From: a virus
Taxonomy: Duplodnaviria; Heunggongvirae; Uroviricota; Caudoviricetes
Reading direction: 5' to 3' (one strand)
DNA length: 11,595 bases
Virus record (IMG/VR): IMGVR_UViG_2579778753_000002
Location: 1-11,595 of that record
The position numbers were made by a program, and so were the translations under genes. Shown piece by piece: positions 1 to 11,195 of the stretch. Position 1 is the first letter of the stretch; every line of letters starts with the position of its first letter. The notes under the pieces are model-generated. The model worked only from the letters and a program-made list of their open reading frames with translations. It was not told where the DNA came from and searched no databases.

Positions 1-95
1 AGTTTGCTCCTGCCATAACGTGAAGAAGCAATGACCTGGTGGTCCGTGACTTCCCTACGCTGGCATTATCCAGATCAGGTGATACGGGTATTTCT
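1..95 (-). promoter_or_regulatory. thiM: 3' portion of the thiM TPP riboswitch / thiM 5' leader (thi-box 3' helices, P1 3' strand, SD), cut off from its 5' half by the island
   Basis: Reverse complement of 1-95 reads AGAAATACCCGTATCACCTGATCTGGATAATGCCAGCGTAGGGAAGTCACGGACCACCAGGTCATTGCTTCTTCACGTTATGGCAGGAGCAAACT. I recognise this from memory as the 3' two-thirds of the E. coli thiM thi-box leader ending at the SD (GGAG at 6-9, minus). The thiM ATG would lie immediately left of position 1, outside the window. Confidence 0.85.
82..95. repeat. att core / target-site direct repeat, left copy (ATACGGGTATTTCT)
   Basis: Exact 14-bp direct repeat with 11182-11195. Each copy is joined to one half of the thiM riboswitch sequence on its outer side and to island sequence on its inner side. 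Confidence 0.8.
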
Positions 96-154
96 TACTA
101 ATTTTTGTTATCAGTTGATAATTAATAAGTTTTTAAGCATATAAGAATTAAAAA

Positions 155-230
155 CCTCAAAAATGACCACACAACTGACCACACATTTCGTTGAAGCCCT
201 ACGAACAACGACGAACAATAACAAACAAAA
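155..230. repeat. Arm-type direct repeat (left), containing tandem TGACCACACA x2 and CGAACAA x2
   Basis: About 95% identical to 11031-11106 (4 differences over about 75 bp). In an excised circle the two copies would flank the core at roughly 60 and 85 bp, as integrase arm sites do in attP. Confidence 0.6.
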
Positions 231-466
231 GGGAAATTTGCTGGCAGTTTTGCTTAACCGTTATCATTTTTCGGCTATCCGCTATGAAGCTGGTGGATGA
301 TCACGGATAATCCGTTATGTGGATCCCCATATCGGCATCAGGCCCACCAGCGTGAAGCGTTTTTCATTTTTCGCGGGTATAAAAAATCGATGGGGCTGGC
401 AGTCCGGAAGACGTCAGGGTACAGAGATTTGACCCGCCCCTCCCTGTGCATGAGCACAATAAGTAA

Positions 467-490
467 CCGAAGGCGGAATTCCGCCCTCGG
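467..490 (-). terminator. Candidate intrinsic terminator for the leftward TerS-like/95-aa operon
   Basis: CCGAAGGCGG-AATT-CCGCCCTCGG: 10-bp GC-rich stem with one mismatch and a 4-nt loop. On the minus strand it is followed by TTACTTATTGT (T-rich). Confidence 0.4.
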
Positions 491-522
491 TGCTCACATA
501 TGAGAAACGATATTTCTTACAC

Positions 523-628
523 CGATACCCTTTATTTGGGTATCGCGAGTAAGCCCCAAAATCTGGGTGTTACTCTTACTACCCAAACTACGGGTAGTTT
601 CATAGTCGAGTTGCAGATCTGCAACTCG
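523..628. repeat. Cluster of three inverted repeats / palindromes in the island's terminal non-coding region
   Basis: 523-545 CGATACCC-tttattt-GGGTATCG (8-bp perfect stem). 585-600 AAACTAC-gg-GTAGTTT. 607-628 CGAGTTGCAGATCTGCAACTCG (perfect 22-bp palindrome centred on AGATCT/GATC). Confidence 0.6.
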
Positions 629-675
629 CCACCAGTTGCTAAGTGCATTTTTGCACTTTCGGTAATATCAACCAG

Positions 676-963
676 TTACCGCCGTAAGTGCTCCGGCTTC
701 CTCCACTGGTAAGTATTTTTCGCGCTCTCCCTCCGTTGTTGAGAACGGCGACGGTATGCCAGCAACTCAAGAACTCTGGTTCGTATGTTGCGCATATCCA
801 CGCCGTTAAGCTCAATACCGTCACGGCGCATTACCTCAGCCACCACACGCGCGTAATTTTCAGCGGTGACTGTATCCGGCTGCGCGGCCTGTTCGTCAGC
901 CAACTGGCTGATTCCACCAGCACAGCGGATTAATCGCAGTATTTCAGATTCGGTCATTATCAT
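676..963 (-). CDS. Hypothetical protein, 95 aa, Arg-rich basic C-terminus; translationally coupled to the upstream TerS-like gene
   Basis: ATG at 963-961 overlaps the TGA of the preceding ORF (ATGA overlap at 960-963). Ends in a basic tail (RRRSQQRRESAKNTYQWRKPEHLRR). No family recognised. Confidence 0.55.
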   Translation of the reverse strand: MIMTESEILRLIRCAGGISQLADEQAAQPDTVTAENYARVVAEVMRRDGIELNGVDMRNIRTRVLELLAYRRRSQQRRESAKNTYQWRKPEHLRR

Positions 964-1445
964 GCCTGTTTTGCGACCTCATTCACTACGTCATTTTTTA
1001 CCATCCGGCTGATAATCTGATTACGCAAATCGTCAATAATTGACTGCACTCTGTTTACTGCCATCGGTTTAAGCCCGGCATCACGTGCCAGAATATTGGG
1101 GAGTTTTGCCAGTTCCTCGCTTACGATTTCCCCCCATATAGCCATCTCTTTTCGCACATCATCGGCGGGTATGAGTTGCGCCGTTTCCTGTTCGAACCTG
1201 AGGCGCTCACGTTCGGACTGATACCAGGCCTTACGGTCATGTGGCTCCATTTCTTCCAGTGATGCCGGAACGGGAAGATCAAGAAAACAGGTCAGAATGT
1301 CAGTCACCCGATAGAGTTTTAGCTTGTCATGCCCTCCGGCTGGCTGGATGTTTTTCAGCCTTGCCGCCGCAGTCTGACGACATATTCCCGCTATCGCCGC
1401 CAGTTGATTAATGTTCAGCATCAGATTTTTCAGTTCTCGATCCAT
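960..1445 (-). CDS. Nu1-like small terminase-type HTH protein (candidate satellite TerS or Rpp-like packaging-redirection protein), about 161 aa
   Basis: The ORF-track start at 1532 is a TTG. I prefer the ATG at 1445-1443, preceded by GGAG. The N-terminus (MDRELKNLMLNINQLAAIAGICRQTAAARLKN...LYRVTDIL) has the layout of the lambda Nu1 winged-HTH DNA-binding domain, followed by a predicted helical region. Confidence 0.6.
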   Translation of the reverse strand: MDRELKNLMLNINQLAAIAGICRQTAAARLKNIQPAGGHDKLKLYRVTDILTCFLDLPVPASLEEMEPHDRKAWYQSERERLRFEQETAQLIPADDVRKEMAIWGEIVSEELAKLPNILARDAGLKPMAVNRVQSIIDDLRNQIISRMVKNDVVNEVAKQA

Positions 1446-1716
1446 ACCCGCTCCAGAATGTTTTAAACATGCATCTTGCGAACAACTTTCAGAAGAGGTC
1501 AAAAAATGCGCTATATGTTGAGCATAAAACAAGCAAAATTAACATGCCAAAAATAAAAATACTTAAAATTCAATACAATAGAAAGATGATGATGACGAAT
1601 GAAAATGCAAAAACTAGCCTTTTTCCGCGCCGCTCCCGCCCCGTGGCAGGCCACCTCACCGGGAGGACCCACCCAAAAAAGGCGACTGTCACTATTGTTT
1701 ATGCTCCATGAGCGAC

Positions 1717-1738
1717 AAAACCGCCCGCAGGCGGTTTT
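1717..1738 (-). terminator. Rho-independent terminator (usable in both directions) after the gpI-like gene
   Basis: AAAA-CCGCC-cgca-GGCGG-TTTT, 18 nt downstream of the gpI-like stop (1756). Confidence 0.7.
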
Positions 1739-1755
1739 ACATAAAACGTTTTGTA

Positions 1756-2397
1756 TCAGCGACCAATCACCACAATCTGGCCGCCATCCCCTTCATCTGC
1801 TGTGCTGATCTCTTGCGAAATCACCCGCGACCCGACGCGCATTTCACCGTACAGAACAGGCACAACATTGCCCTGGGCAACCATGTTATCCAGAGAGGAG
1901 AAATAGGTGTTCTGCTTACCGTTATCCGTGGTGCTGGCTGTTGCTGTGCTGGCTTTCGGTGCCAGCATCTGTGCAACACCACCAAGTGTCATCGCCGCCC
2001 CCATTGAAAAGAGAATGTCACTGAAAGCGATACTGATTCCTGGCATCCAGATTGCCGTAGCAATCAGCGCCGCACCAAGCACCGCCTGAAACACGCCGCC
2101 ACTTTTGGCACCAGCCAGACGCGGTACGATGTGGATCACGGCACCATTTTCCAGCGGTTCATTAAGACGGGCTGATAATTCGTTTTCGCCTGTATCACGC
2201 CCGGCAATACGCACCTGATACCAACCATCGCTCAGTTTCTGACGAAACGCTGGGATCTGCATGGCCAGCGCCCGGATGGCTTCGGCCCCCGTTTTCACAT
2301 GAAGATCGATGCGGCGGCCAAATCGTTGTAAATCCCCGTAAAGGCAGATGCGTGCCATGCCCGGTGACGCCAGAGGGAGTGTGTGCGTCGCTGCCAT
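1756..2397 (-). CDS. Lambda gpI-like tail tip assembly protein, 213 aa
   Basis: ATG start with an AGAGAGG RBS. The protein (MAATHTLPLASPGMARICLYGDLQRFGRRIDL...ADEGDGGQIVVIGR) matches my recollection of lambda tail assembly protein I almost end to end, with a shorter Gly/Ala-rich central region. Recalled, not searched. Confidence 0.65.
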   Translation of the reverse strand: MAATHTLPLASPGMARICLYGDLQRFGRRIDLHVKTGAEAIRALAMQIPAFRQKLSDGWYQVRIAGRDTGENELSARLNEPLENGAVIHIVPRLAGAKSGGVFQAVLGAALIATAIWMPGISIAFSDILFSMGAAMTLGGVAQMLAPKASTATASTTDNGKQNTYFSSLDNMVAQGNVVPVLYGEMRVGSRVISQEISTADEGDGGQIVVIGR

Positions 2398-2486
2398 TTG
2401 TCGGTATACCTCTCTCGTTTGCTCAGTTGTTCAGGAATATGGTGCGGCAGCTCGCCGCCCCACGTGTTCAAAGTACCGCCTTGTTG

Positions 2487-4400
2487 TCATGCTCCATTCG
2501 ATTTCAGCAATCCACGATAATCGAGGGCCGCGACACCTGCATCTATGCGCACCTTCCAGGCGACACCATCAACAGTAAAGCCCACCTGCTCCTCAAGATA
2601 TGGCGTATCCATACCATCAAGATAAGCGACTTCTATTGTGTCCATCCCCTTAGCTGCGGCTACATACCATTCCTTGCTATTGGCCTTATCAAGACGTGGC
2701 TCAACAATTACTTCTGCCATATCTTTCACAACGTTAATGATGCCGGGGTTCTGATTGATAGTACCCTCATCACCAACCGGAAAGACTGATGACGATGACA
2801 GAATGGCGCGACGCGCGGCAGATTCCAGCGCGGCAGGGACCAGAACAAAAGCAGGGGTAATATTCAGTGAGTCGCCGTTAGCATCCTCCTGGAGGCGCAT
2901 CAGCTTACGGGCTTCATCAAGCCCCACCATGTCCATATCCTTCGCAATAAGATTTTTATGATCGGCATGGAATAACGCTTTACCATCCGTAAACTTGCCG
3001 TTGCTGGTTAACAGGAGATAAACCAGATTGCCAACTGTTCTGGCGGCTGCGCGTCCCATCGCCATGGGGATTGTAGTTAACTGGGTCAGGTCATCGTTGA
3101 TAATGGCCTGACGGGTAACGGAAAAAATATTCCCGTACGTGGCCAGCGCAATAGGTACACCTTTATCGCTGGTGGTGATGTATTTATATTCCGCACCTTC
3201 CGGTACTTTATCCAGCTTTGAAAAACCATTCAGACCAACGCGCTTTGCTTCATGAAAGTTTGAAAGCGAACCGGTACGCGTCCATTTCTGGAACGTTTCG
3301 CCGCTGTCCTGCCAGCCTTTCAGTACAGATTTTTCAGCCCCACCAGCCAGAATATGAGAAAAATCACTGCTGCTGTGTGTAAAAGCCGCATTAACAACCT
3401 GCGAGCGATTAATAAAACCACTCACAGTGATACCACGATCAACCAGTGATGCCTGGGCCATTTCAAAAAGGCTCATCATCGCGTAAGGGTTGCCTCGTTC
3501 AGGGCGTTCATACCCAAGACGGGAATAAAGCCCCTGACGAATTGCATCACCTGTTATGTTTCCGTTTCCGGCATAGATATGAGGCGGAGTATTTTTATTG
3601 GATGGCGTGGACTCGCGCCCCAGCTCGTTCAACAGCTTTTCACGGGCCATTTCCGGTGTACATGATGCATCTTCCAGACACGCCATTTTGATCCCGTCGT
3701 AACGACTGCCGAACAGGCTAAACACTTCACTTATTCCATTGATGCGCTTCTGTTCATTACCAGCAATATTTGCCGCTCCCTGTGGCGGTGTAATCATTCC
3801 TTTAATGGTTTCCGGCATATGTAAAAAATCTCCTGTGCGCTTCGATTCAATTCGCGCCATTGCTCTGACGGATGGCAACAATTCATCAGCAAAACCGTGC
3901 TTAAGGCATTCTTTCCCGTCCATCCAGGTTTCATCTTCCAGCATGGCGGTAATTTCCTGTGCTGATTTGCCCGTTTTTCTGGCATAAGCAGGGACTAACA
4001 CGGTTTCCACCTTATCCAGCAAATCAGCATAATCACGCATATCACCAGCATTTCCGCCAGAGATACCCCACGGCTTATGTATCATCATCATGGCGTTTTC
4101 CGGCATCACAACACGATCGCCAGCCATTGCGACCACCGAAGCCATTGAAGCCGCAACACCATCGATATAAACCGTAATGTCTGCCGGATGATTCCGTAGC
4201 AGGTTATAGATGGCGATGCCTTCAAACACATCACCACCTGGTGAATGGATCCTCAGATTGATATGTGAAACATCGCCAAGGGCTTTCAGGTCTTCCGCGA
4301 ACTGCTTTGCAGTAACACCGAAGCCGCCAATCTCCTCATAGATAGATATATCCGCCGCTCCGCGAACATCCGCCGCCTTAATGGTGTACCAGCGATTCAT
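2487..4400 (-). CDS. Fusion of ClpP/S14-type prohead protease (N-terminal), linker/scaffold-like segment and HK97-fold major capsid protein (C-terminal), 637 aa
   Basis: N-terminus has ClpP-like motifs (HSPGGDVFEGIAIYN, GVAASMASVVAMAGD, MMMIHKPWG). The C-terminal 350 aa or so looks like a phage major capsid protein (ITPAFVLVPAALESAARRAI..., FTVDGVAWKVRIDAGVAALDYRG). ATG start with a GGGGGAA RBS. Long ORF with no internal stops. Confidence 0.85.
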   Translation of the reverse strand: MNRWYTIKAADVRGAADISIYEEIGGFGVTAKQFAEDLKALGDVSHINLRIHSPGGDVFEGIAIYNLLRNHPADITVYIDGVAASMASVVAMAGDRVVMPENAMMMIHKPWGISGGNAGDMRDYADLLDKVETVLVPAYARKTGKSAQEITAMLEDETWMDGKECLKHGFADELLPSVRAMARIESKRTGDFLHMPETIKGMITPPQGAANIAGNEQKRINGISEVFSLFGSRYDGIKMACLEDASCTPEMAREKLLNELGRESTPSNKNTPPHIYAGNGNITGDAIRQGLYSRLGYERPERGNPYAMMSLFEMAQASLVDRGITVSGFINRSQVVNAAFTHSSSDFSHILAGGAEKSVLKGWQDSGETFQKWTRTGSLSNFHEAKRVGLNGFSKLDKVPEGAEYKYITTSDKGVPIALATYGNIFSVTRQAIINDDLTQLTTIPMAMGRAAARTVGNLVYLLLTSNGKFTDGKALFHADHKNLIAKDMDMVGLDEARKLMRLQEDANGDSLNITPAFVLVPAALESAARRAILSSSSVFPVGDEGTINQNPGIINVVKDMAEVIVEPRLDKANSKEWYVAAAKGMDTIEVAYLDGMDTPYLEEQVGFTVDGVAWKVRIDAGVAALDYRGLLKSNGA

Positions 4401-4606
4401 TGTTCCCCCACCGATGCAAAACCATTCTGATTAAGCCAGGTGTTTACGGCATGTCTGACAATCTGCGCCACACCTGGTAATGGTTGGTCAGGATGATGAT
4501 TTATATGGTCGATCCTGTACTGCTTAAGGCGCATAACGGTCTGCGCATCCAGATGAACGGAACCACCTCTGGTATCACCTGTATTCAGGTCATTAATACA
4601 ACTCAC
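4397..4606 (-). CDS. Hypothetical small protein (69 aa), translationally coupled to the protease-capsid gene
   Basis: GTG start at 4606 preceded by AGAGGAAG. Its TGA overlaps the ATG of the capsid gene (ATGA at 4397-4400). Confidence 0.5.
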   Translation of the reverse strand: MSCINDLNTGDTRGGSVHLDAQTVMRLKQYRIDHINHHPDQPLPGVAQIVRHAVNTWLNQNGFASVGEQ

Positions 4607-4708
4607 AGCAACTTCCTCTGACTGACTAAACTATGCACATTATTGATCGATAAAAGTGGTAAATAAACATGTTTCTATCATAAAAACAGATTAATTAGAT
4701 TCAGACAC

Positions 4709-4731
4709 AAAAAAGCCGGATTTCTCCGGCT
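4709..4731 (-). terminator. Rho-independent terminator ending the replication operon / ori region
   Basis: On the minus strand: AGCCGGA-gaaa-TCCGGCT followed by TTTTTTG. Confidence 0.65.
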
Positions 4732-4867
4732 TCTGTCACTCGTTGCTTAAAACGGTATGTTATCCCCGTACGGATCATCATTCCCCGCCTGTTGTTTTGG
4801 TGTGCTTCGCTGTCATAGGCTTTATCTCACAGCAGTAAATTAAAATTTTTGCGTTTTAACCCTTCAC

Positions 4868-5090
4868 CTGTTCACCTTTTGATATTTTCTCTTTTAATTC
4901 ATAATGTTAAGGGGTGAACAGTTTCAAAAAAACTATTCACCAACTGTTCACCACTGTTCACCCTTGAAGCTCAATAAACAATCAAAAAGGTGAACAGTGA
5001 ATAGTTTGGTGAACAGTTCATAAATAACTGTTCACCCTATAATATACTGATATAAAAGATATTTATGACAGGGTGAACAGTGGTGAACAG
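4868..5090. repeat. Iteron array (at least 9 copies of GGTGAACAG / CTGTTCACC in both orientations) with an AT-rich stretch: candidate P4-type origin of replication
   Basis: Direct copies at 4913, 4989, 5009, 5072, 5082. Inverted copies at 4868, 4944, 4954, 5029. Degenerate copies at 4933 and 4997. AT-rich 5041-5069. Sits immediately 3' of the alpha-like gene. The motif contains TGTTCACC, which I recall as the P4 alpha-binding type I iteron. Confidence 0.75.
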
Positions 5091-5103
5091 TTATTCCATA
5101 AGT

Positions 5104-6921
5104 TTAATTTTTGCTATCGTCATTAGTGACCGATACACATGATGGCATCCAGTCTTCTGATTCCTCCGTCAGTGTCACGTTTGAACGCAAACCGTGCTTC
5201 GTTTTCCGTTTCATATACTCCCTGCCATATTCCGCCATTGCCCCCGGCATATCTTTACCGAAGCGCGTCAGTGTTACAGGTTTACCAAACCCATGTGCCC
5301 TCATATAAGCCAGATAGGCATGATAGAGATACCTGCGTGGGCTGAATGGCACAATTTCAGCATTACCCACTAACAGGCCATCACACATTACCGACGCCAT
5401 GAGATAGCCGCAGAAGTCCACCAGCGAATCCCCCTCTCGCTTTATCGCCAGTGCTTCTTCTGATTTCTGCTGCTCATATAACAGGCGTCTGGCTTCGTCC
5501 TGGTCAGCAAACCGTGTAAGCAGATGGCGAATCACTACCGCCAGCTCACCTTCTATTTTTTCCGCCAGCATTGGATCACGTTCGTTCTCCGGTACAACTT
5601 CCGAAAAATTGAATATCACCCGACGACGTGAGATCCCCCCGCTGCGGTCACTGAATGACATGGCGTTATTGTTAACCGCCAGCACTACTGCCGGAATACG
5701 CGTTGAGTAGGGGGCTTTGTGTTTCGGGTCAATTGCCACCTTGTCACCGCCTGTAATAGCCTTAATCCCTGCCCCATCACCAGCGTAGCGGGTCATATCC
5801 GGCATGATAATCAGCGAAAAGCCAACCACTAACGCGCGTTCCCTTGCATCTTCCAGCGCCTTCATGCTTGCCGATACTGTGTTGGCCTTACCCGCCAGCA
5901 TGGTGCAAATCTCCGCCATCACGCTTTTACCACTTCCCCCTGGACCTGTTACCTCAATGAATAACTGCCAGTCGTACCGGTTCGCCAGCACCATGAATAA
6001 TGCAGCCAGTACGCGATCCGCCTTGCGGTCATTCTCAGCCACCGAACGGCGTAACCACTTCCAGAAATTCGGCGCATGTGTTGCCAGCATTTCCCCCTCT
6101 GCTGGTGGGCTGAAAGGTAATTCACTGGCAATTAACAACCAGTCGTTTTTGTTATGCTCCCGAAAATTACCTGTTCTGGTATCAAATACCCCGTTACTGA
6201 ATCCAATCAGGTTACGGGCTGTATTCCCCATTACAGGCAAACTTAACTTCATGGTATCGACCGCCGATTTAATGGCGTTCTGCGAATAGCTGATCTCCGC
6301 ATCAATGAAAATCTGCGCCATAGCTCGCTGTAATTCTTTATCCTGTACTGGCTCCCATACAACGCCGTTGTAATGGTGAACAGTGTCAGAGTCAGCATGA
6401 ATCGCCAGTTCACCGCCATAATGTGCCAGGAGAACTTCGCCGCGTTGACTTGCTCCCATCTGGTTAAGCGCCAGTGATGAAGCGTTATCGTCTTTTACCC
6501 GCTCTTTTTTCTTTACAGGCAGTTCAACTACCTTTTTCTTTTCCTCCAGCTCTGCCCGTTCACGTTCCAGATATTCGCGCCAGTTCTCCCGTTTCTGGCT
6601 GTGCATTCCTTCAGGGTAATAATCAGCATCCCTGACACCTGCCGCTGCCAGTTTCTGCCCGATGGTATTAACAAGCCCCGGACGCAATAACCCCGCCTGA
6701 TAGAGACGCACGCGATAGCGTCCGTCCGGTACGATTTGCAGGTTGTCCAGTTCGGCAAGTTGTTGCTCTCCAAGCCAGACAGGAGGCACGTTATCGCCAG
6801 CCAGTCGCCCGTCCTGTTCCTGCCACTGCTTCGCATGTGCCCACGCATTACTACCCGCAAAAATGATGACTTCCGTCATTTTGTCACGCGGCTGGTGTTT
6901 TAAATTTGGCGCTTTTTTCAT
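5104..6921 (-). CDS. P4 alpha-like replication protein (D5_N-type domain plus SF3 helicase with Walker A GPGGSGKS; phage/plasmid primase P4-family C-terminal region)
   Basis: About 605 aa from the ATG at 6921 (GGAG RBS); the ORF track extends to a GTG at 6936. Walker A VTGPGGSGKS, Walker B-like LVVGFSLIIMPD. Adjacent to the iteron array. Confidence 0.85.
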   Translation of the reverse strand: MKKAPNLKHQPRDKMTEVIIFAGSNAWAHAKQWQEQDGRLAGDNVPPVWLGEQQLAELDNLQIVPDGRYRVRLYQAGLLRPGLVNTIGQKLAAAGVRDADYYPEGMHSQKRENWREYLERERAELEEKKKVVELPVKKKERVKDDNASSLALNQMGASQRGEVLLAHYGGELAIHADSDTVHHYNGVVWEPVQDKELQRAMAQIFIDAEISYSQNAIKSAVDTMKLSLPVMGNTARNLIGFSNGVFDTRTGNFREHNKNDWLLIASELPFSPPAEGEMLATHAPNFWKWLRRSVAENDRKADRVLAALFMVLANRYDWQLFIEVTGPGGSGKSVMAEICTMLAGKANTVSASMKALEDARERALVVGFSLIIMPDMTRYAGDGAGIKAITGGDKVAIDPKHKAPYSTRIPAVVLAVNNNAMSFSDRSGGISRRRVIFNFSEVVPENERDPMLAEKIEGELAVVIRHLLTRFADQDEARRLLYEQQKSEEALAIKREGDSLVDFCGYLMASVMCDGLLVGNAEIVPFSPRRYLYHAYLAYMRAHGFGKPVTLTRFGKDMPGAMAEYGREYMKRKTKHGLRSNVTLTEESEDWMPSCVSVTNDDSKN

Positions 6922-7217
6922 TTCTGCTCTCTCCACGCGGCAATCATGTTTTTCAGTTCCTGTAGTTTTTTATCAACATCCATACATGACACATGGTTAT
7001 TTCTGGAAGGCGGGATTTCCCGCCGGAATCTGCAAATAAAGATCTCCACGTTCAGCGAACTATGAAATGAATAGCCATCACGAATAAAATACACACGGTC
7101 AAACATCAGTTCTTTTACCGTTACTCTGTTACCGTTCTTATCCAGATAAATAGCGCCGGGGATAATTTTGGGGTGTGCATAACCGCTGGCAGTCAAGCCA
7201 GATATATATGTTCTCAT
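6918..7217 (-). CDS. Hypothetical protein (99 aa), translationally coupled to the alpha-like gene
   Basis: ATG start. Its TGA overlaps the ATG of the alpha-like gene (ATGA at 6918-6921). No family recognised. Confidence 0.55.
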   Translation of the reverse strand: MRTYISGLTASGYAHPKIIPGAIYLDKNGNRVTVKELMFDRVYFIRDGYSFHSSLNVEIFICRFRREIPPSRNNHVSCMDVDKKLQELKNMIAAWREQK

Positions 7218-7223
7218 GATTAT

Positions 7224-7544
7224 TTATCCCCGATTTGAATCAGTATTCGCTTTCTTTATGGCATTTAATGCATCTGTGGCATTTTCAATGGTGCACCGTA
7301 ACGAAATATCAAACTGCCCAAGCATTGCCAGTAACAAACCGATATTACCCATATCAATGCGCATGGCCTTTTCGTCATAGTCCTCATTTTCTGACGCATG
7401 CCACATCAGGCTACCAATTGACGCAATACCCATTGATATATTGTCAGTAGCCCCATCCGCAGCGGAATAAACCTTTTTAGCAATATCATGCTCACAGTTA
7501 AAATGCGGATTAATCAGGTACTGGTAATTGGTCATGTCAGGCAT
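7224..7544 (-). CDS. Hypothetical acidic protein (106 aa)
   Basis: ATG at 7544 preceded by AGGGGGGG. Ends 7 nt before the next gene in the same operon. No family recognised. Confidence 0.55.
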   Translation of the reverse strand: MPDMTNYQYLINPHFNCEHDIAKKVYSAADGATDNISMGIASIGSLMWHASENEDYDEKAMRIDMGNIGLLLAMLGQFDISLRCTIENATDALNAIKKANTDSNRG

Positions 7545-7740
7545 GGCACCCCCCCTGACGAATACGGGCGGCGAATACCATCACGCAGCCAGCCGGGGAT
7601 TGCTGGCGTGCTTCCTGTTCGCTGGTGGCCACGATGGTAATCACGCGCGGTTGTGCCGTGCTCAGGGCGATAAAACGCCAGATGTATTTATTCAGGTTGT
7701 GCGAGTCCCGCCCTTGCGGGTGTGTGGTATGATTTCTCAT
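7537..7740 (-). CDS. Possible small protein (67 aa), first gene of the replication operon
   Basis: ATG at 7740 with GAGG 7 nt upstream. Its stop overlaps the 106-aa start by 8 nt (ATGCCTGA). It is the C-terminal segment of a long, otherwise implausible 362-aa ORF. Confidence 0.35.
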   Translation of the reverse strand: MRNHTTHPQGRDSHNLNKYIWRFIALSTAQPRVITIVATSEQEARQQSPAGCVMVFAARIRQGGCHA

Positions 7741-7838
7741 AGCTGCCTCGATAATCTTGCTATCGTTGGTGGTTAGAAGCCCCGTTACTGCTCCTACAGT
7801 GCGGGGTTTCGTCGTTTCTGCACCTTGCATTAACAAGG

Positions 7839-7916
7839 TGTAAGTAACTTTATTTATAGGTGGCTTACATGTCAATGCTTTTATGTAAGACTTTTTATGT
7901 GTATATTGTCTTACAC
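7839..7916. promoter_or_regulatory. Divergent promoter/operator region with four GTAAG/CTTAC half-sites
   Basis: Half-sites at 7840, 7864, 7885, 7910, including CTTACAT-N12-ATGTAAG. Minus-strand promoter candidate: -35 TTGACA (7875-7870), 17-bp spacer, -10 TAAAGT (7852-7847). Plus-strand candidate -10 TATATT (7902-7907). Confidence 0.45.
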
Positions 7917-7936
7917 TTTCATTGAGAGGATTACAG

Positions 7937-8242
7937 ATGGCTACAGGTTCAAAAAACGCAAAATCACAATCACTGACAGCTCGGATCCCGCATGATGTTA
8001 TTGAAGGCATGGAATCCGTAAAACTGGACGGTGAAAGCAACGCCGGATTCATAGTAACCGCCATGCGCGGTGAAATCGCCCGCCGCCAGGCAGAAGGAAG
8101 CGGAGAAAACCTCCTGGTTTCTTCGCTCGATGCCCTAGCGCAGGTGGAAAAAATCGGAGTCAAAGCCGCCGAGGAGATCGGGCAACTCGTCACCGTCGCG
8201 CGTGAAGAACTCCAGCGACGCAAGGTCAAAGAGCAGGAATAG
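7937..8242 (+). CDS. Ribbon-helix-helix-like putative DNA-binding regulator (101 aa)
   Basis: ATG at 7937 with GAGAGGA 6 nt upstream (the ORF track's 7922 start is a TTG). N-terminal beta-strand-plus-helix pattern (SLTARIPHDVIEGMESVKL). Transcribed opposite to the rest of the island. Confidence 0.55.
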   Translation: MATGSKNAKSQSLTARIPHDVIEGMESVKLDGESNAGFIVTAMRGEIARRQAEGSGENLLVSSLDALAQVEKIGVKAAEEIGQLVTVAREELQRRKVKEQE

Positions 8243-8299
8243 CCACTATCAGCGCCATAGTTTGAGGAACGCAGGCGCATTGCTTTACAGGACAGCACC

Positions 8300-8479
8300 A
8301 TGAGCGACACAGAATCAACCAAAACACCATCACCAACTCGTAAGAGACGACGCAAAAATATAGCGCATGAACATGAATCAGAAAGATTCGCACCTTGTTC
8401 GTTTGCTCTTGAGAAATTCCTTAAAGAGCACAGGAAAAAGCTCTCGTTGCAAACCTTGGAACGAACCAAATCTGACTGA
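8300..8479 (+). CDS. Possible small basic protein (59 aa), downstream of the RHH-like gene
   Basis: ATG at 8300, in-frame TGA at 8477-8479, just below the 60-aa track cutoff. Lys/Arg-rich N-terminus (TRKRRRKNIAHEHE). Followed by a strong terminator. Confidence 0.35.
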   Translation: MSDTESTKTPSPTRKRRRKNIAHEHESERFAPCSFALEKFLKEHRKKLSLQTLERTKSD

Positions 8480-8546
8480 TCACATTGCCCACCAGCCGCA
8501 AATGTGGCATTGTTGGCGATGCGTTCAAGTTTAGTGTGTATCCATT

Positions 8547-8575
8547 GGCGACCGCCCCCGGTCGCCTTTGTTTTA
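8547..8575 (+). terminator. Rho-independent terminator of the rightward RHH-like operon
   Basis: GGCGACCG-cccc-CGGTCGCC (8-bp perfect stem) followed by TTTGTTTTAT. Confidence 0.8.
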
Positions 8576-8593
8576 TATGTCATATGCTCCCCT

Positions 8594-8818
8594 TTACGCT
8601 GCCTTACCTGAATTAACGCGGTCACGGCTTTGCACCCAGTCCATAACTTCGGAAAGCAACCAGCCTACAGAACGCCCCCCAAGATTACGGCGAGACGGAA
8701 AGCCCCCTTTCTTCTCCAGTTCGTAGCGTGTAGTACGGCTGACGCCTGTTAACTTACGACATTCATCCTCACGAATTACGCGATCTGTTAGTGATTGAAA
8801 TTGTGTATTTTGATTCAT
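8594..8818 (-). CDS. alpA: AlpA-family prophage transcriptional regulator (74 aa)
   Basis: ATG with GAGGGTG RBS. HTH region (CRKLTGVSRTTRYELEKKGGFPSRRNLGGRSVGW) matches the AlpA/MerR-like fold found next to P4-type integrases. Confidence 0.85.
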   Translation of the reverse strand: MNQNTQFQSLTDRVIREDECRKLTGVSRTTRYELEKKGGFPSRRNLGGRSVGWLLSEVMDWVQSRDRVNSGKAA

Positions 8819-8921
8819 AAAAACACCCTCGAACGTAACCGAACAAGGGCATCTTATTTACCATAGCAGTTGGTGCAATATTGGAAAAATAAACTTTATT
8901 CTAATTTATCGTTCTCCATGA

Positions 8922-9776
8922 TTAATTTTCATTAGATAACATTTTTCTTATTTTTTCTAAAGAATCGCTGCGCATTATTTTTTCTAAGAAGGGTTTTACA
9001 GTCTGAGCAATAGCAAAGGTGTCCTTTTCACCATCAGGATACAAAGATACGGCAAGCACCCCTAATGAAATTTTTCTATCTGTAGACAACTCCCAAGATA
9101 ATAAGTCAATTAATGGGATTATCTTATAATCAATAATTTTACGTCGTATGCTCTCCCAACTTCCTGCAATTGGTTTGTCTGGCTCAACAATTGAAAGTTC
9201 ACTACGCCATTTTGGTAATAGTTTTGTAAACGCTTCAATCAACTCATCATCTCTGTTATGTAGTAAGTCAACAGAAACAAGCATATTATCTAATGTATCA
9301 GAAAGGAGATTCACTGGTTCACGCATCACAGCCCAAAACATCCCATTATCTTCTGATATTAAACTTCCAACCATCTCATTATCTATGATGATTGGTTTAT
9401 CCTTCCAATATCCTCTTTCCGCAGTCAGTTTATTAATCATTGATATATCAAACCTTGTTACAGGTTTAATTCCATCATCATAACTTAGCTCAATTAACTT
9501 CGGTTGCACTTTATGGTCATATTCTTTTTGTTTATCACAAAACCAATCGTCTTCTTTCAGCTCTCCAAATGGATCCCCGTAATTATTATGCAACGGGTAT
9601 TCAGCACCAAACATAAATCCATATTCAGGCATCTCAGAATGTTTCATCGTTAAATCATCTTGTCGCCAATATAATTGGCGAAATAGATCTTTATCCGACA
9701 AGTTTTCTAGGCAATCATATTTGCCTAAATCAAATGACTTTGGTAAATCTTTTTTACTATTTACTTTTTTCGTCAT
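8922..9776 (-). CDS. Hypothetical protein (284 aa), AT-rich cargo gene between int and alpA
   Basis: Uninterrupted 855-nt ORF. Its ATG overlaps the int TGA (ATGA at 9773-9776). Visibly more AT-rich than the flanking int and alpA. No recognisable catalytic motif. Confidence 0.75.
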   Translation of the reverse strand: MTKKVNSKKDLPKSFDLGKYDCLENLSDKDLFRQLYWRQDDLTMKHSEMPEYGFMFGAEYPLHNNYGDPFGELKEDDWFCDKQKEYDHKVQPKLIELSYDDGIKPVTRFDISMINKLTAERGYWKDKPIIIDNEMVGSLISEDNGMFWAVMREPVNLLSDTLDNMLVSVDLLHNRDDELIEAFTKLLPKWRSELSIVEPDKPIAGSWESIRRKIIDYKIIPLIDLLSWELSTDRKISLGVLAVSLYPDGEKDTFAIAQTVKPFLEKIMRSDSLEKIRKMLSNEN

Positions 9777-10993
9777 TGTATCCCTCTCAATATCACAATA
9801 TTTTCATTATATCCTGCAATCATATCAAGACGCTCAACCCATAGATTCAGTGCGTCCCGTTTCGCCTGCAAATAGCGTGAATGGTTATAGGTTTTTTGCT
9901 GACCTGGCATCTGATGCGCTGTGATGTGCTCCACGATATGCGGATCGACACCTAAATCATTCAGCATAGTTGTAAACGTGTGTCGGAAATCATGCAGCGT
10001 CCAGTGTTCCTGCTTAAGCCGCTTATGCGCATTTCGTCCATATTGCGCCACCGTGGTATCTTTTTTCAGTTCGCCGAGTAATAACCCAGTGTGTGCGTTT
10101 TGCTCCACCAGCTTCTGAATGAACGGCAAAATACCATCAGGAATAGGTCGGAATATTGTTACCTTCGTTTTGCTGTGCTCTTTTGGCACTGTCCACAACA
10201 TTTCTTTCAGATCCCATTCTTTGATCTCTGAAAGTCTGATCTCTGCCGTTCTGCACCCGAACACAATTAACAAGCGCATTAACGCACTGTAATAGGGAGC
10301 GAACACATCACCATCAATAGCGCGTAGAATTTCTTTTAGTTCGCTGTTGCTGTGCACTCTCTCGCGGATTTCTGCTCTCTTACCCACATCAGTAACGATC
10401 AAATCGTCCAGGGCGTTGCTAAACGCGTAGCGCCGCCTGCGGCAAAACTTTAGCGCCTGTTTGCATGTCTGCATGACATGGCCCGCTGCTACTGGTGCTT
10501 TTTTTCGTACGCGGTCAAAACATGCGATCCACTGCCTTGTATCACACTTATCAAGGGGAATTGCCCCAATATGGCAAATGATGTGCTTATCCATACGCTG
10601 CACCAGCTTTATGTAATCTTTGCGGTTATCCTTCGCGTATTCCTCCAGCCAGTAGTTAATCGCTTCCTTCACCGTAACGGGTTTTAGTGCTTCCTGTACT
10701 GTGGCGCACAACTCATAACGGGGGTTTTTACCCTCAGCCAGCCATGCCCGGCACAGTGTGCGTTTTTCCCTTGCGGCTTTCAGCGACAATTCAGGGTAAG
10801 CCCCCAGCTTTAACCGCTCTGCGGCAACCTCACGGCCTCCCGTTCGGTACCGGAAATACCAGGTTAATTTGCCGCCCTTTGAGTGTTTAATCTCCAGCCC
10901 GCCCCCGTCGGAGTAAAAACGCTCTTTTTCTGCCTGGACAGCCGCCAATTTTTTTAACGTCGAATCGCTCAGTTTGTTTAGTGCTTTTCCCAC
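9773..10993 (-). CDS. int: P4-family tyrosine integrase (406 aa)
   Basis: GTG start with GAGGA RBS. N-terminal arm-binding-type region (GGLEIKHSKGGKLTWYFRYR...GAYPELSLKAAREKR). C-terminal catalytic region with HDFRHTF and a downstream Tyr. Adjacent to the att site. Confidence 0.9.
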   Translation of the reverse strand: MGKALNKLSDSTLKKLAAVQAEKERFYSDGGGLEIKHSKGGKLTWYFRYRTGGREVAAERLKLGAYPELSLKAAREKRTLCRAWLAEGKNPRYELCATVQEALKPVTVKEAINYWLEEYAKDNRKDYIKLVQRMDKHIICHIGAIPLDKCDTRQWIACFDRVRKKAPVAAGHVMQTCKQALKFCRRRRYAFSNALDDLIVTDVGKRAEIRERVHSNSELKEILRAIDGDVFAPYYSALMRLLIVFGCRTAEIRLSEIKEWDLKEMLWTVPKEHSKTKVTIFRPIPDGILPFIQKLVEQNAHTGLLLGELKKDTTVAQYGRNAHKRLKQEHWTLHDFRHTFTTMLNDLGVDPHIVEHITAHQMPGQQKTYNHSRYLQAKRDALNLWVERLDMIAGYNENIVILRGIQ

Positions 10994-11030
10994 TATCAGA
11001 TCCTCTTTTCAGTCCTCCAGCCTCAAAAAA

Positions 11031-11106
11031 CTGACCACACAACTGACCACACATTTTGTTGAAGCTCTACGAACAACGACGAACAACAACAAACAATAAA
11101 ACAGGA
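11031..11106. repeat. Arm-type direct repeat (right), partner of 155-230
   Basis: Same tandem TGACCACACA and CGAACAA sub-repeats. Lies in the int upstream region, about 40 bp from the int start. Confidence 0.6.
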
Positions 11107-11181
11107 TAATTTATTGTTTATCAAATACATACATAAACAACCACAAGCAACCCCGAACCACAAAAAACACTAAATGAGAAA

Positions 11182-11195
11182 ATACGGGTATTTCT
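11182..11195. repeat. att core / target-site direct repeat, right copy
   Basis: Identical to 82-95. Confidence 0.8.

Follow-up and report, generated by a model that had tools for sequence, protein, structure and literature searches.

A DUF6387-family gene forms an optional, exchangeable cassette between int and alpA in a PICI-like phage satellite

Introduction

The Stl repressors of staphylococcal pathogenicity islands are encoded beside int, are very divergent and modular, and use a variable part to recognise a helper-phage protein. The hotspots of P4-like satellites, as the published accounts describe them, hold dozens of known defence systems and are almost never empty (PMC13586616; Rousset 2022 as cited). 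In phage-inducible chromosomal islands (PICIs) and their capsid-forming counterparts (cf-PICIs), the immune loci described in these accounts flank the packaging module on either side or lie between att and int (Fillol-Salom 2022 as cited; bioRxiv 10.1101/2025.02.11.637232, PMC13586616). Among the variable positions that it describes, a comparison of cf-PICIs lists a gene downstream of alpA, not a slot between int and alpA (bioRxiv 10.1101/2025.02.11.637232). Here we analyse a stretch of viral DNA of 11,595 nt (IMG/VR record IMGVR_UViG_2579778753_000002; hereafter the window) whose element is, judged by its genes, a PICI-like phage satellite. Our subject is a 284-aa gene of the DUF6387 family that lies between the integrase gene, int, and the regulator gene, alpA.

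The locus shares with the hotspots of P4-like satellites and P2-like phages a slot by int, conserved core borders and swapped AT-rich accessory content. It differs from them in what the slot contains, namely DUF6387, members of an unrelated family that we call ALT, or nothing (plus yfjH in CP4-57), with no recognised defence gene. It also differs in being mostly empty (71/80), and DUF6387 does not move to other kinds of element. With PICIs and cf-PICIs the element has in common int, alpA, a primase gene, capsid/packaging genes and, for the window on the genes alone, membership of the helper-mobilised class, whereas the immune loci described for those islands are not between int and alpA. The likeness to Stl is an analogy only: DUF6387 is int-adjacent, diverges between related islands and has a variable module, but there is neither sequence nor fold evidence of kinship, and no helix-turn-helix (HTH) is seen by sequence. 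In addition, unlike Stl, the DUF6387 gene is co-directional with int and alpA and not divergent from a regulated operon, and it is optional, AlpA-driven PICIs working without it. What is new here is the definition of the slot and its borders, the tie of DUF6387 to alpA, and an unrelated alternative family in the same slot.

Results and Discussion

A genuine gene of the DUF6387 family

The open reading frame (ORF) at 8922-9776 is a genuine gene of the DUF6387 family. The gene, its start signals and its two neighbours are located as follows.

8922..9776, minus strand: DUF6387-family gene, 284 aa, ATG start, from the ORF listing
9773..9776, minus strand: ATGA in which the int TGA and the DUF6387 ATG share bases, from the sequence
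9782..9786, minus strand: GAGGG Shine-Dalgarno sequence of the DUF6387 gene, 5 nt upstream of it and inside the last int codons
9773..10993, minus strand: int, P4-type tyrosine integrase, 406 aa, Pfam Arm-DNA-bind_3 and Phage_integrase
8594..8818, minus strand: alpA, AlpA-family regulator, 74 aa, Pfam Phage_AlpA (E = 4.8e-16)

An earlier note on this DNA, made from its letters, had placed the ORF between int and alpA, overlapping the int stop in an ATGA arrangement, and had called it more AT-rich than its neighbours. All three statements hold: alpA lies 103 nt downstream of the ORF, the overlap occupies bases 9776-9773 of the minus strand, and the GC content of the ORF is 0.338, compared with 0.482 for int and 0.484 for alpA. 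Through the bases shared by the int stop and the DUF6387 start, the gene is translationally coupled to int. A 4-nt overlap with int is found in most distinct int-slot-alpA loci, for DUF6387 and ALT alike.

The same note held that the protein could not be assigned to any family. That statement is superseded by a full-length match to Pfam PF19924 (DUF6387), which scored 108.8 bits against a gathering cut-off of 28.9 (E = 4.6e-31) and aligned residues 3-272 with model positions 2-252 of 258. The RefSeq name, 'DUF6387 family protein' (WP_000163378.1), agrees. PF19924 was present in all 57 homologues from a word-indexed search, and a search through 1.84 billion cluster representatives with a hidden Markov model (HMM) found 1263 DUF6387 matches at E ≤ 1e-3, nearly all of 250-330 aa. 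The window protein is a plain member of the family and shows no difference from its single-domain architecture of ~250-330 aa. Unusually long members showed no further Pfam domain; fused domains in these proteins were considered and dropped, since Pfam finds none beyond DUF6387. The family is already catalogued and annotated, with its function unassigned. NCBIfam gave no match for the protein, PHROGs matched it only to a family of unknown function, and in the literature searched DUF6387 was met only in the gene tables of two papers, with no paper characterising DUF6387, PF19924 or WP_000163378.

The notion of a chance ORF or a decaying pseudogene without function has effectively been refuted already. 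The sole point for it is that the family lacks an assigned function. Set against this, 285 open codons would arise by chance with a probability of ~1e-11 at the ORF's own base composition, the Pfam match spans the full length, and the 1263 cluster representatives keep nearly to one length range. The allele occurs at ≥99% identity in 50 of 5426 complete E. coli genomes, SMS-3-5 among them, and the AlphaFold2 (AF2) model of the protein is confident (pLDDT 86).

In members of the family the two ends are conserved, as an N-terminal motif (residues ~1-40) and a C-terminal domain (~161-270); the stretch between them (~41-160) is hypervariable and rich in indels. Ten residues are near-invariant in 145 diverse members: F15, Y20, R38, D176, R191, Y217, D224, W228, P247 and T259. 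The AF2 model is mainly helical (pTM 0.68). Comparison of PDB chains with the DUF6387 family profile gave no match at E ≤ 10, and Foldseek of the model against PDB and BFVD returned nothing below E = 3.8; there was no enzyme among the fold matches. Other features of the protein that the earlier note had read from its sequence were borne out. Its residue counts are high in L, D, K and E, and the median net charge and pI of 40 aligned family members are -9 and ~5.1, as expected of an acidic, D/E/K-rich protein. A motif scan found no Walker A (P-loop), Rx4-6H (HEPN) or HNH motif, and Kyte-Doolittle hydropathy predicted no transmembrane segment, because the top 19-residue window reached only 0.91. 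The N-terminal 'SDKDLFRQL' was considered as an AlpA/Xis-type HTH helix and rejected, as neither Pfam (E ≤ 10) nor hhalign against the AlpA profile supported it.

An exchangeable slot with defined borders

We surveyed 51 distinct int-slot-alpA triples and 80 IMG/VR integrase relatives, ~130 loci in all. The DUF6387 gene is an optional, exchangeable cassette at the int-alpA junction. Behind int genes that are 92-97% identical we found this DUF6387, a 36%-identical DUF6387, the unrelated ALT (here 239-257 aa), or an AT-rich spacer of 200-420 nt; the earlier note's variable slot is therefore seen directly on near-identical backbones. At the rcnR site, an int 96% identical in protein (92% in DNA) is followed by an unrelated protein of 239 aa (ALT). 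Among IMG/VR int genes at ≥95% identity, one is followed by a 331-aa DUF6387 (36% identical), one by ALT and one by a spacer of ~410 nt. The slot was empty in 71 of the 80 integrase relatives sampled, with DUF6387 in 7 and ALT in 2. Because most related PICIs, including those studied experimentally, have an empty slot, DUF6387 is accessory. The empty AT-rich spacers, of 200-420 nt, are ~82% identical among themselves. They were considered as decayed slot genes, and this was rejected, no remnant of DUF6387 or ALT being found in them.

Both borders of the cassette could be mapped. On the left, similarity is lost ~45 nt before the int stop, so that the last ~15 codons (about 9773-9824) diverge. 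On the right, similarity is back ~45 nt before the alpA ATG, and the border lies just upstream of a hairpin at 8819-8853 (described below). Identities of int and alpA are correlated among islands with a Spearman coefficient of 0.84, compared with only 0.49 for int and DUF6387, and three backbone lineages combine int identities of ≥90% with DUF6387 identities of 36-44%. Two loci, from Providencia and a metagenome, carry tandem divergent DUF6387 paralogues between int and alpA (loci of the survey are numbered with the prefix L).

L014, 6007-7684: tandem DUF6387 paralogues
L085, 1524-3264: tandem DUF6387 paralogues

The earlier note had taken the AT-richness of the ORF as a sign of separate acquisition, a claim that our data do not support. 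Every sampled DUF6387 gene lies ~8-19 GC points under its own int (E. coli, Klebsiella, Serratia, Morganella, Yersinia, Providencia and others), and ALT, yfjH and the empty spacer are as AT-rich as DUF6387. Since low GC is common to all occupants and to the empty spacer, it is a property of the slot and of these families, and no sign of recent arrival in this island. As in a hotspot, the content of the slot differs between close relatives within conserved borders. The known defence systems that would be expected among the occupants of a defence hotspot were not seen, the 51 triples and 80 relatives holding DUF6387, ALT or nothing.

Other occupants of the slot

The ALT family was located in the int-alpA slot of three loci, with lengths of 235-262 aa.

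L023, 9316-10035: ALT family
L024, 9316-10089: ALT family
L025, 9273-10010: ALT family

Examples are WP_000775337.1, WP_000775339.1 and WP_001553506.1, and relatives of ALT are the slot gene of islands at the cspD site (O157:H7) and the yhdJ site. ALT is without a Pfam or PADLOC match. It was considered as a remote homologue of DUF6387 and rejected at an hhalign probability of 0.2%. The C-terminal 70 aa are nearly identical between ALT proteins that are otherwise ~40% identical, a pattern that indicates mosaic recombination. In the ALT model a strand-helix-helix-strand unit is confidently predicted at the N-terminus, and the variable centre is beta-rich; from this model ALT looks DNA-binding, as DUF6387 may also be. 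An AlpA/Xis-type HTH at 'LPEAAKKLGC..D.YHF' was also considered and rejected, having no support from Pfam (E ≤ 10) or hhalign; only its predicted topology is suggestive. ALT and DUF6387 thus resemble each other in slot, 4-nt int overlap, acidity, conserved ends around a variable centre and AT-richness. They differ in having no detectable homology, and the ALT centre is beta-rich whereas DUF6387 is mostly helical.

The CP4-57 element of E. coli K-12 has a further gene at this position.

L190, 3145-4101: yfjH, 318 aa, GC 0.37, E. coli K-12 CP4-57, between intA and alpA

It is opposite in strand to alpA and divergent from it, its start lying 44 nt from the alpA start. YfjH belongs to no Pfam family, and neither the DUF6387 nor the ALT HMM matches it. 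ALT and YfjH are like DUF6387 in occupying the int-alpA slot, in length (239-318 aa), in AT-richness (GC 0.32-0.39) and in being uncharacterised.

The tie to alpA across lineages

Homologues occupy the same int-alpA slot in other islands whose downstream replication/capsid modules differ, a check that the earlier note had suggested. We collected 93 DUF6387 genes (53 distinct proteins). Where the flanking sequence was long enough to judge, in most cases int precedes the gene and alpA follows it at 42-203 nt. The gap between int and DUF6387 is usually -4, at times -1, 0, +2 or +90. The order int, DUF6387 (usually with the 4-nt overlap), alpA ~40-110 nt further on was found in Klebsiella, Morganella, Serratia, Enterobacter, Providencia, Yersinia, Tenebrionibacter and locus L021, and it is kept for members that are only 27-35% identical (L093-L097). 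In Neptunomonas the order is int, DUF6387 and an HTH_17 gene.

Other lineages have separated the gene from int. In Pasteurellaceae, DUF6387 comes after the packaging module and before alpA, int being placed at the far end and on the opposite strand; in EARL-type islands DUF6387 is the first gene, followed by AlpA and then H-NS; and one Serratia island has the order DUF6387, AlpA, int. In every sampled lineage DUF6387 is directly upstream of an AlpA-family gene. The link of DUF6387 to alpA outlasts its link to int.

DUF6387 matches were found in 2 of 50,697 phage records and 4 of 72,556 plasmid records. The two large-plasmid matches that were examined are both inside EARL-like islands. A third match, the 16,971-bp K. 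pneumoniae 'plasmid' CP018459.1, has an integrase gene followed by a DUF6387 that is 71% identical to that of the window; this record may represent a circular satellite that had been excised and was assembled as a replicon.

What DUF6387 might do

The reading that we favour, at a probability of roughly 40%, is that DUF6387 acts together with the island's Int/AlpA switch as a binding or specificity protein rather than an enzyme, its variable centre recognising a phage or a rival island. The protein would be a helical, acidic binding protein without enzymatic activity. Contacts with island DNA or with the Int/AlpA machinery would be made by the two conserved modules, one N-terminal and one C-terminal (the second perhaps winged-helix-like), and the hypervariable centre would set which partner is recognised, for instance a protein of the helper phage or a rival island. 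DUF6387 might in this way tune the timing of the AlpA switch (excision, induction) or give the island an 'immunity type'. We favour this role as partner of the switch because DUF6387 is tied to alpA in every sampled lineage and rare in phages and plasmids, no known defence systems are found in the slot, the protein has no effector domain and PICI immune loci are reported elsewhere. That it is not an enzyme is supported by DUF6387 being the sole Pfam domain even in long members and by the lack of a sequence match in PDB, while weak covariation of int and DUF6387 and a hypervariable centre between conserved ends are what specificity-like evolution would give.

Several points weigh against a partner of the switch. 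The protein is acidic overall, no HTH is detectable in it by sequence, its winged-helix signal is marginal, and hhalign does not relate its N-terminus to HTH domains of the AlpA type. Whatever the cassette, the att/int upstream region is essentially identical; co-variation of this DNA with cassette type was looked for and none was found, so that there is no co-varying operator there. PICIs with an empty slot are inducible through AlpA alone. With the slot empty in 71 of 80 islands, this makes any regulatory role dispensable. Tandem divergent paralogues suit conflict genes better than regulators, and swapping, AT-richness and accessory status fit defence or counter-defence equally well.

It is also conceivable, although we consider it distinctly less probable, that DUF6387, ALT and perhaps YfjH are alternative alleles of a hitherto unrecognised specificity locus at the int-alpA junction of AlpA-controlled islands, as Gram-negative counterparts of Stl-type sensors or as effector-less interference proteins of the island context. 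If the Stl-type version were true, the slot alleles would decide which helper phage or rival island trips the AlpA switch. The interference version would amount to a new class of proteins that interfere with phages as single genes and are active in the island context only.

A live rival of about the same weight, less likely than the favoured reading, is the one that the earlier note had proposed, a stand-alone single-gene anti-phage or abortive-infection cargo. Its centre would sense a phage component, and its conserved domains would then either kill or arrest the host or stop the phage. Fast cassette exchange at 92-97% int identity, AT-rich accessory slot occupants, the hypervariable centre and the tandem paralogues of some loci all speak for it. 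So do two published observations: 6 of 8 randomly picked unknown P4-hotspot genes were defensive (PMC13586616), and one PICI without a recognisable defence system still gives superinfection immunity (PMC11773190). However, PADLOC-DB v2.0.0 gave no family at E ≤ 0.1 for the window protein or at E ≤ 0.01 for 64 diverse DUF6387, ALT and YfjH proteins. No nuclease, NTPase, TIR, HEPN or membrane domain is present, and the effector expected of an abortive-infection protein was not found, the search giving Pfam DUF6387 only and no motif, transmembrane segment or enzyme fold match. The slot, moreover, is usually empty and contains no known defence system in ~130 loci, whereas P4 hotspots are extremely rarely empty (PMC13586616), and PICI defence loci are reported around the packaging module and between att and int. 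Unlike portable defence genes, DUF6387 is always beside alpA and almost absent from phages and plasmids. Expression coupled to int would also be odd for a sentinel that must always be present.

Coupling to int speaks for an establishment or counter-defence factor, made with Int on entry, that protects the DNA on arrival or disarms a host or prophage system, since such a factor would be produced exactly when Int is made. The acidity of DUF6387 (pI ~5.1), shared by ALT, and the fast allele turnover and accessory status also agree with this role; anti-defence genes are said to diversify quickly (PMC13586616). We nevertheless judge it improbable. DUF6387 is only mildly acidic and has no likeness to solved structures or to viral predicted structures (PDB, BFVD), and the Pasteurellaceae and EARL-type copies are uncoupled from int, yet kept beside alpA. 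Still less credible, indeed very improbable, is a recombination partner of Int, that is, a directionality, target-site or assembly factor for integration or excision. Its support is the ATGA coupling, which is conserved across genera and of a kind common between proteins that work together. Yet int genes that are 92-97% identical, with the same rcnR site and identical att/arm DNA, occur with ALT or with no gene, and a role as Int cofactor or in target-site choice was rejected on the finding that the same int and the same site occur in those states. DUF6387 is 284 aa and acidic (family median pI ~5.1), whereas directionality factors are small (~60-100 aa) basic HTH proteins. AlpA already has an excisionase-like role, and it is the 74-aa AlpA next door, not DUF6387, that is a member of the Xis/AlpA/Vis type.

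A partner of the Int/AlpA switch would bear on how helper phages activate alpA in Gram-negative PICIs, and DUF6387, always directly upstream of alpA and swapped like an immunity allele, is an obvious candidate modulator. As a defence or counter-defence gene it would be one without a recognisable effector; should it have no phenotype, the finding would add only another annotated domain of unknown function. In each case the int-alpA junction is a defined exchange site with mapped borders and three surveyed contents, plus yfjH in CP4-57. Natural near-isogenic backbones with each of the three contents exist, and the function is therefore directly testable.

Hairpins between DUF6387 and alpA

The DNA between the cassette gene and alpA contains two predicted hairpins.

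8883..8917, minus strand: stem-loop and U-run right after the DUF6387 stop, with cassette-specific sequence, from RNA folding
8819..8853, minus strand: conserved hairpin and T-run ending 5 nt before the alpA ATG, from alignment and consensus fold

Folding of 8805-8925 (minus strand) as RNA gave -29.2 kcal/mol (z = -3.6). From its sequence, the stem-loop at 8883-8917 looks like a terminator of the int-DUF6387 transcript. The consensus fold of the hairpin at 8819-8853 over ten islands has 8 pairs, 6 of them with compensatory double changes, and alpA has no Shine-Dalgarno-like sequence other than the GAGGG within the 3' arm. This arrangement suggests that alpA may be controlled at the hairpin through terminator read-through or sequestration of the ribosome-binding site. 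Control of this kind could bear on how helper phages turn alpA on.

The satellite island

The island that carries the gene has the following further features.

82..11195, no strand assigned: whole satellite, ~11.1 kb, from repeats, protein families and annotated relatives
82-95 and 11182-11195: candidate att core, exact 14-nt direct repeats 11,100 nt apart
159-228 and 11027-11096: arm-type repeats of 70 nt, 94% identical, inside each end, containing TGTGGTCAGTT and GTTGTTCGT
4912-5101: about eight GGTGAACAGT iterons, some as inverted pairs, AT-rich, directly downstream of the primase gene

With att-like repeats near both of its ends, the window holds a complete island of ~11.1 kb. The 70-nt repeats with TGTGGTCAGTT and GTTGTTCGT are probably arm-type integrase sites, and the GGTGAACAGT iteron cluster at 4912-5101 is probably the satellite replication origin. 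The island is integrated beside rcnR, and there is no tRNA gene. Its genes are in the order int, DUF6387, alpA, a YlcI/YnfO-like gene (plus strand), an Icd-like gene, DUF4222, primase, the iterons, a protease-capsid fusion and a TerS-like gene. The primase is of the P4 family, the capsid gene is a fusion of a ClpP-like prohead protease and the major capsid protein, and the TerS-like gene is small-terminase-like. We took as marks of a PICI-like element int, alpA, primase/replication genes with iterons, few capsid/packaging genes, att repeats and a length of ~10-15 kb. The window element has all of these and no tail-fibre or lysis module.

A 362-aa ORF with a GTG start at 7537-8625 (minus strand) overlaps the YlcI/YnfO-like gene at 7922-8242 (plus strand). 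Its translation is of low complexity and implausible, and the ORF is almost certainly spurious; annotated related islands have a short Icd-like gene where the window has this ORF. Related islands have, immediately after alpA, a variable ORF of 247-348 aa without a Pfam family, which the window (8243-8593) lacks.

L099, 6411-7457: variable ORF downstream of alpA
L100, 6411-7229: variable ORF downstream of alpA
L023, 8247-8990: variable ORF downstream of alpA

This site is a second small exchange site, which matches the variable gene found there in cf-PICIs.

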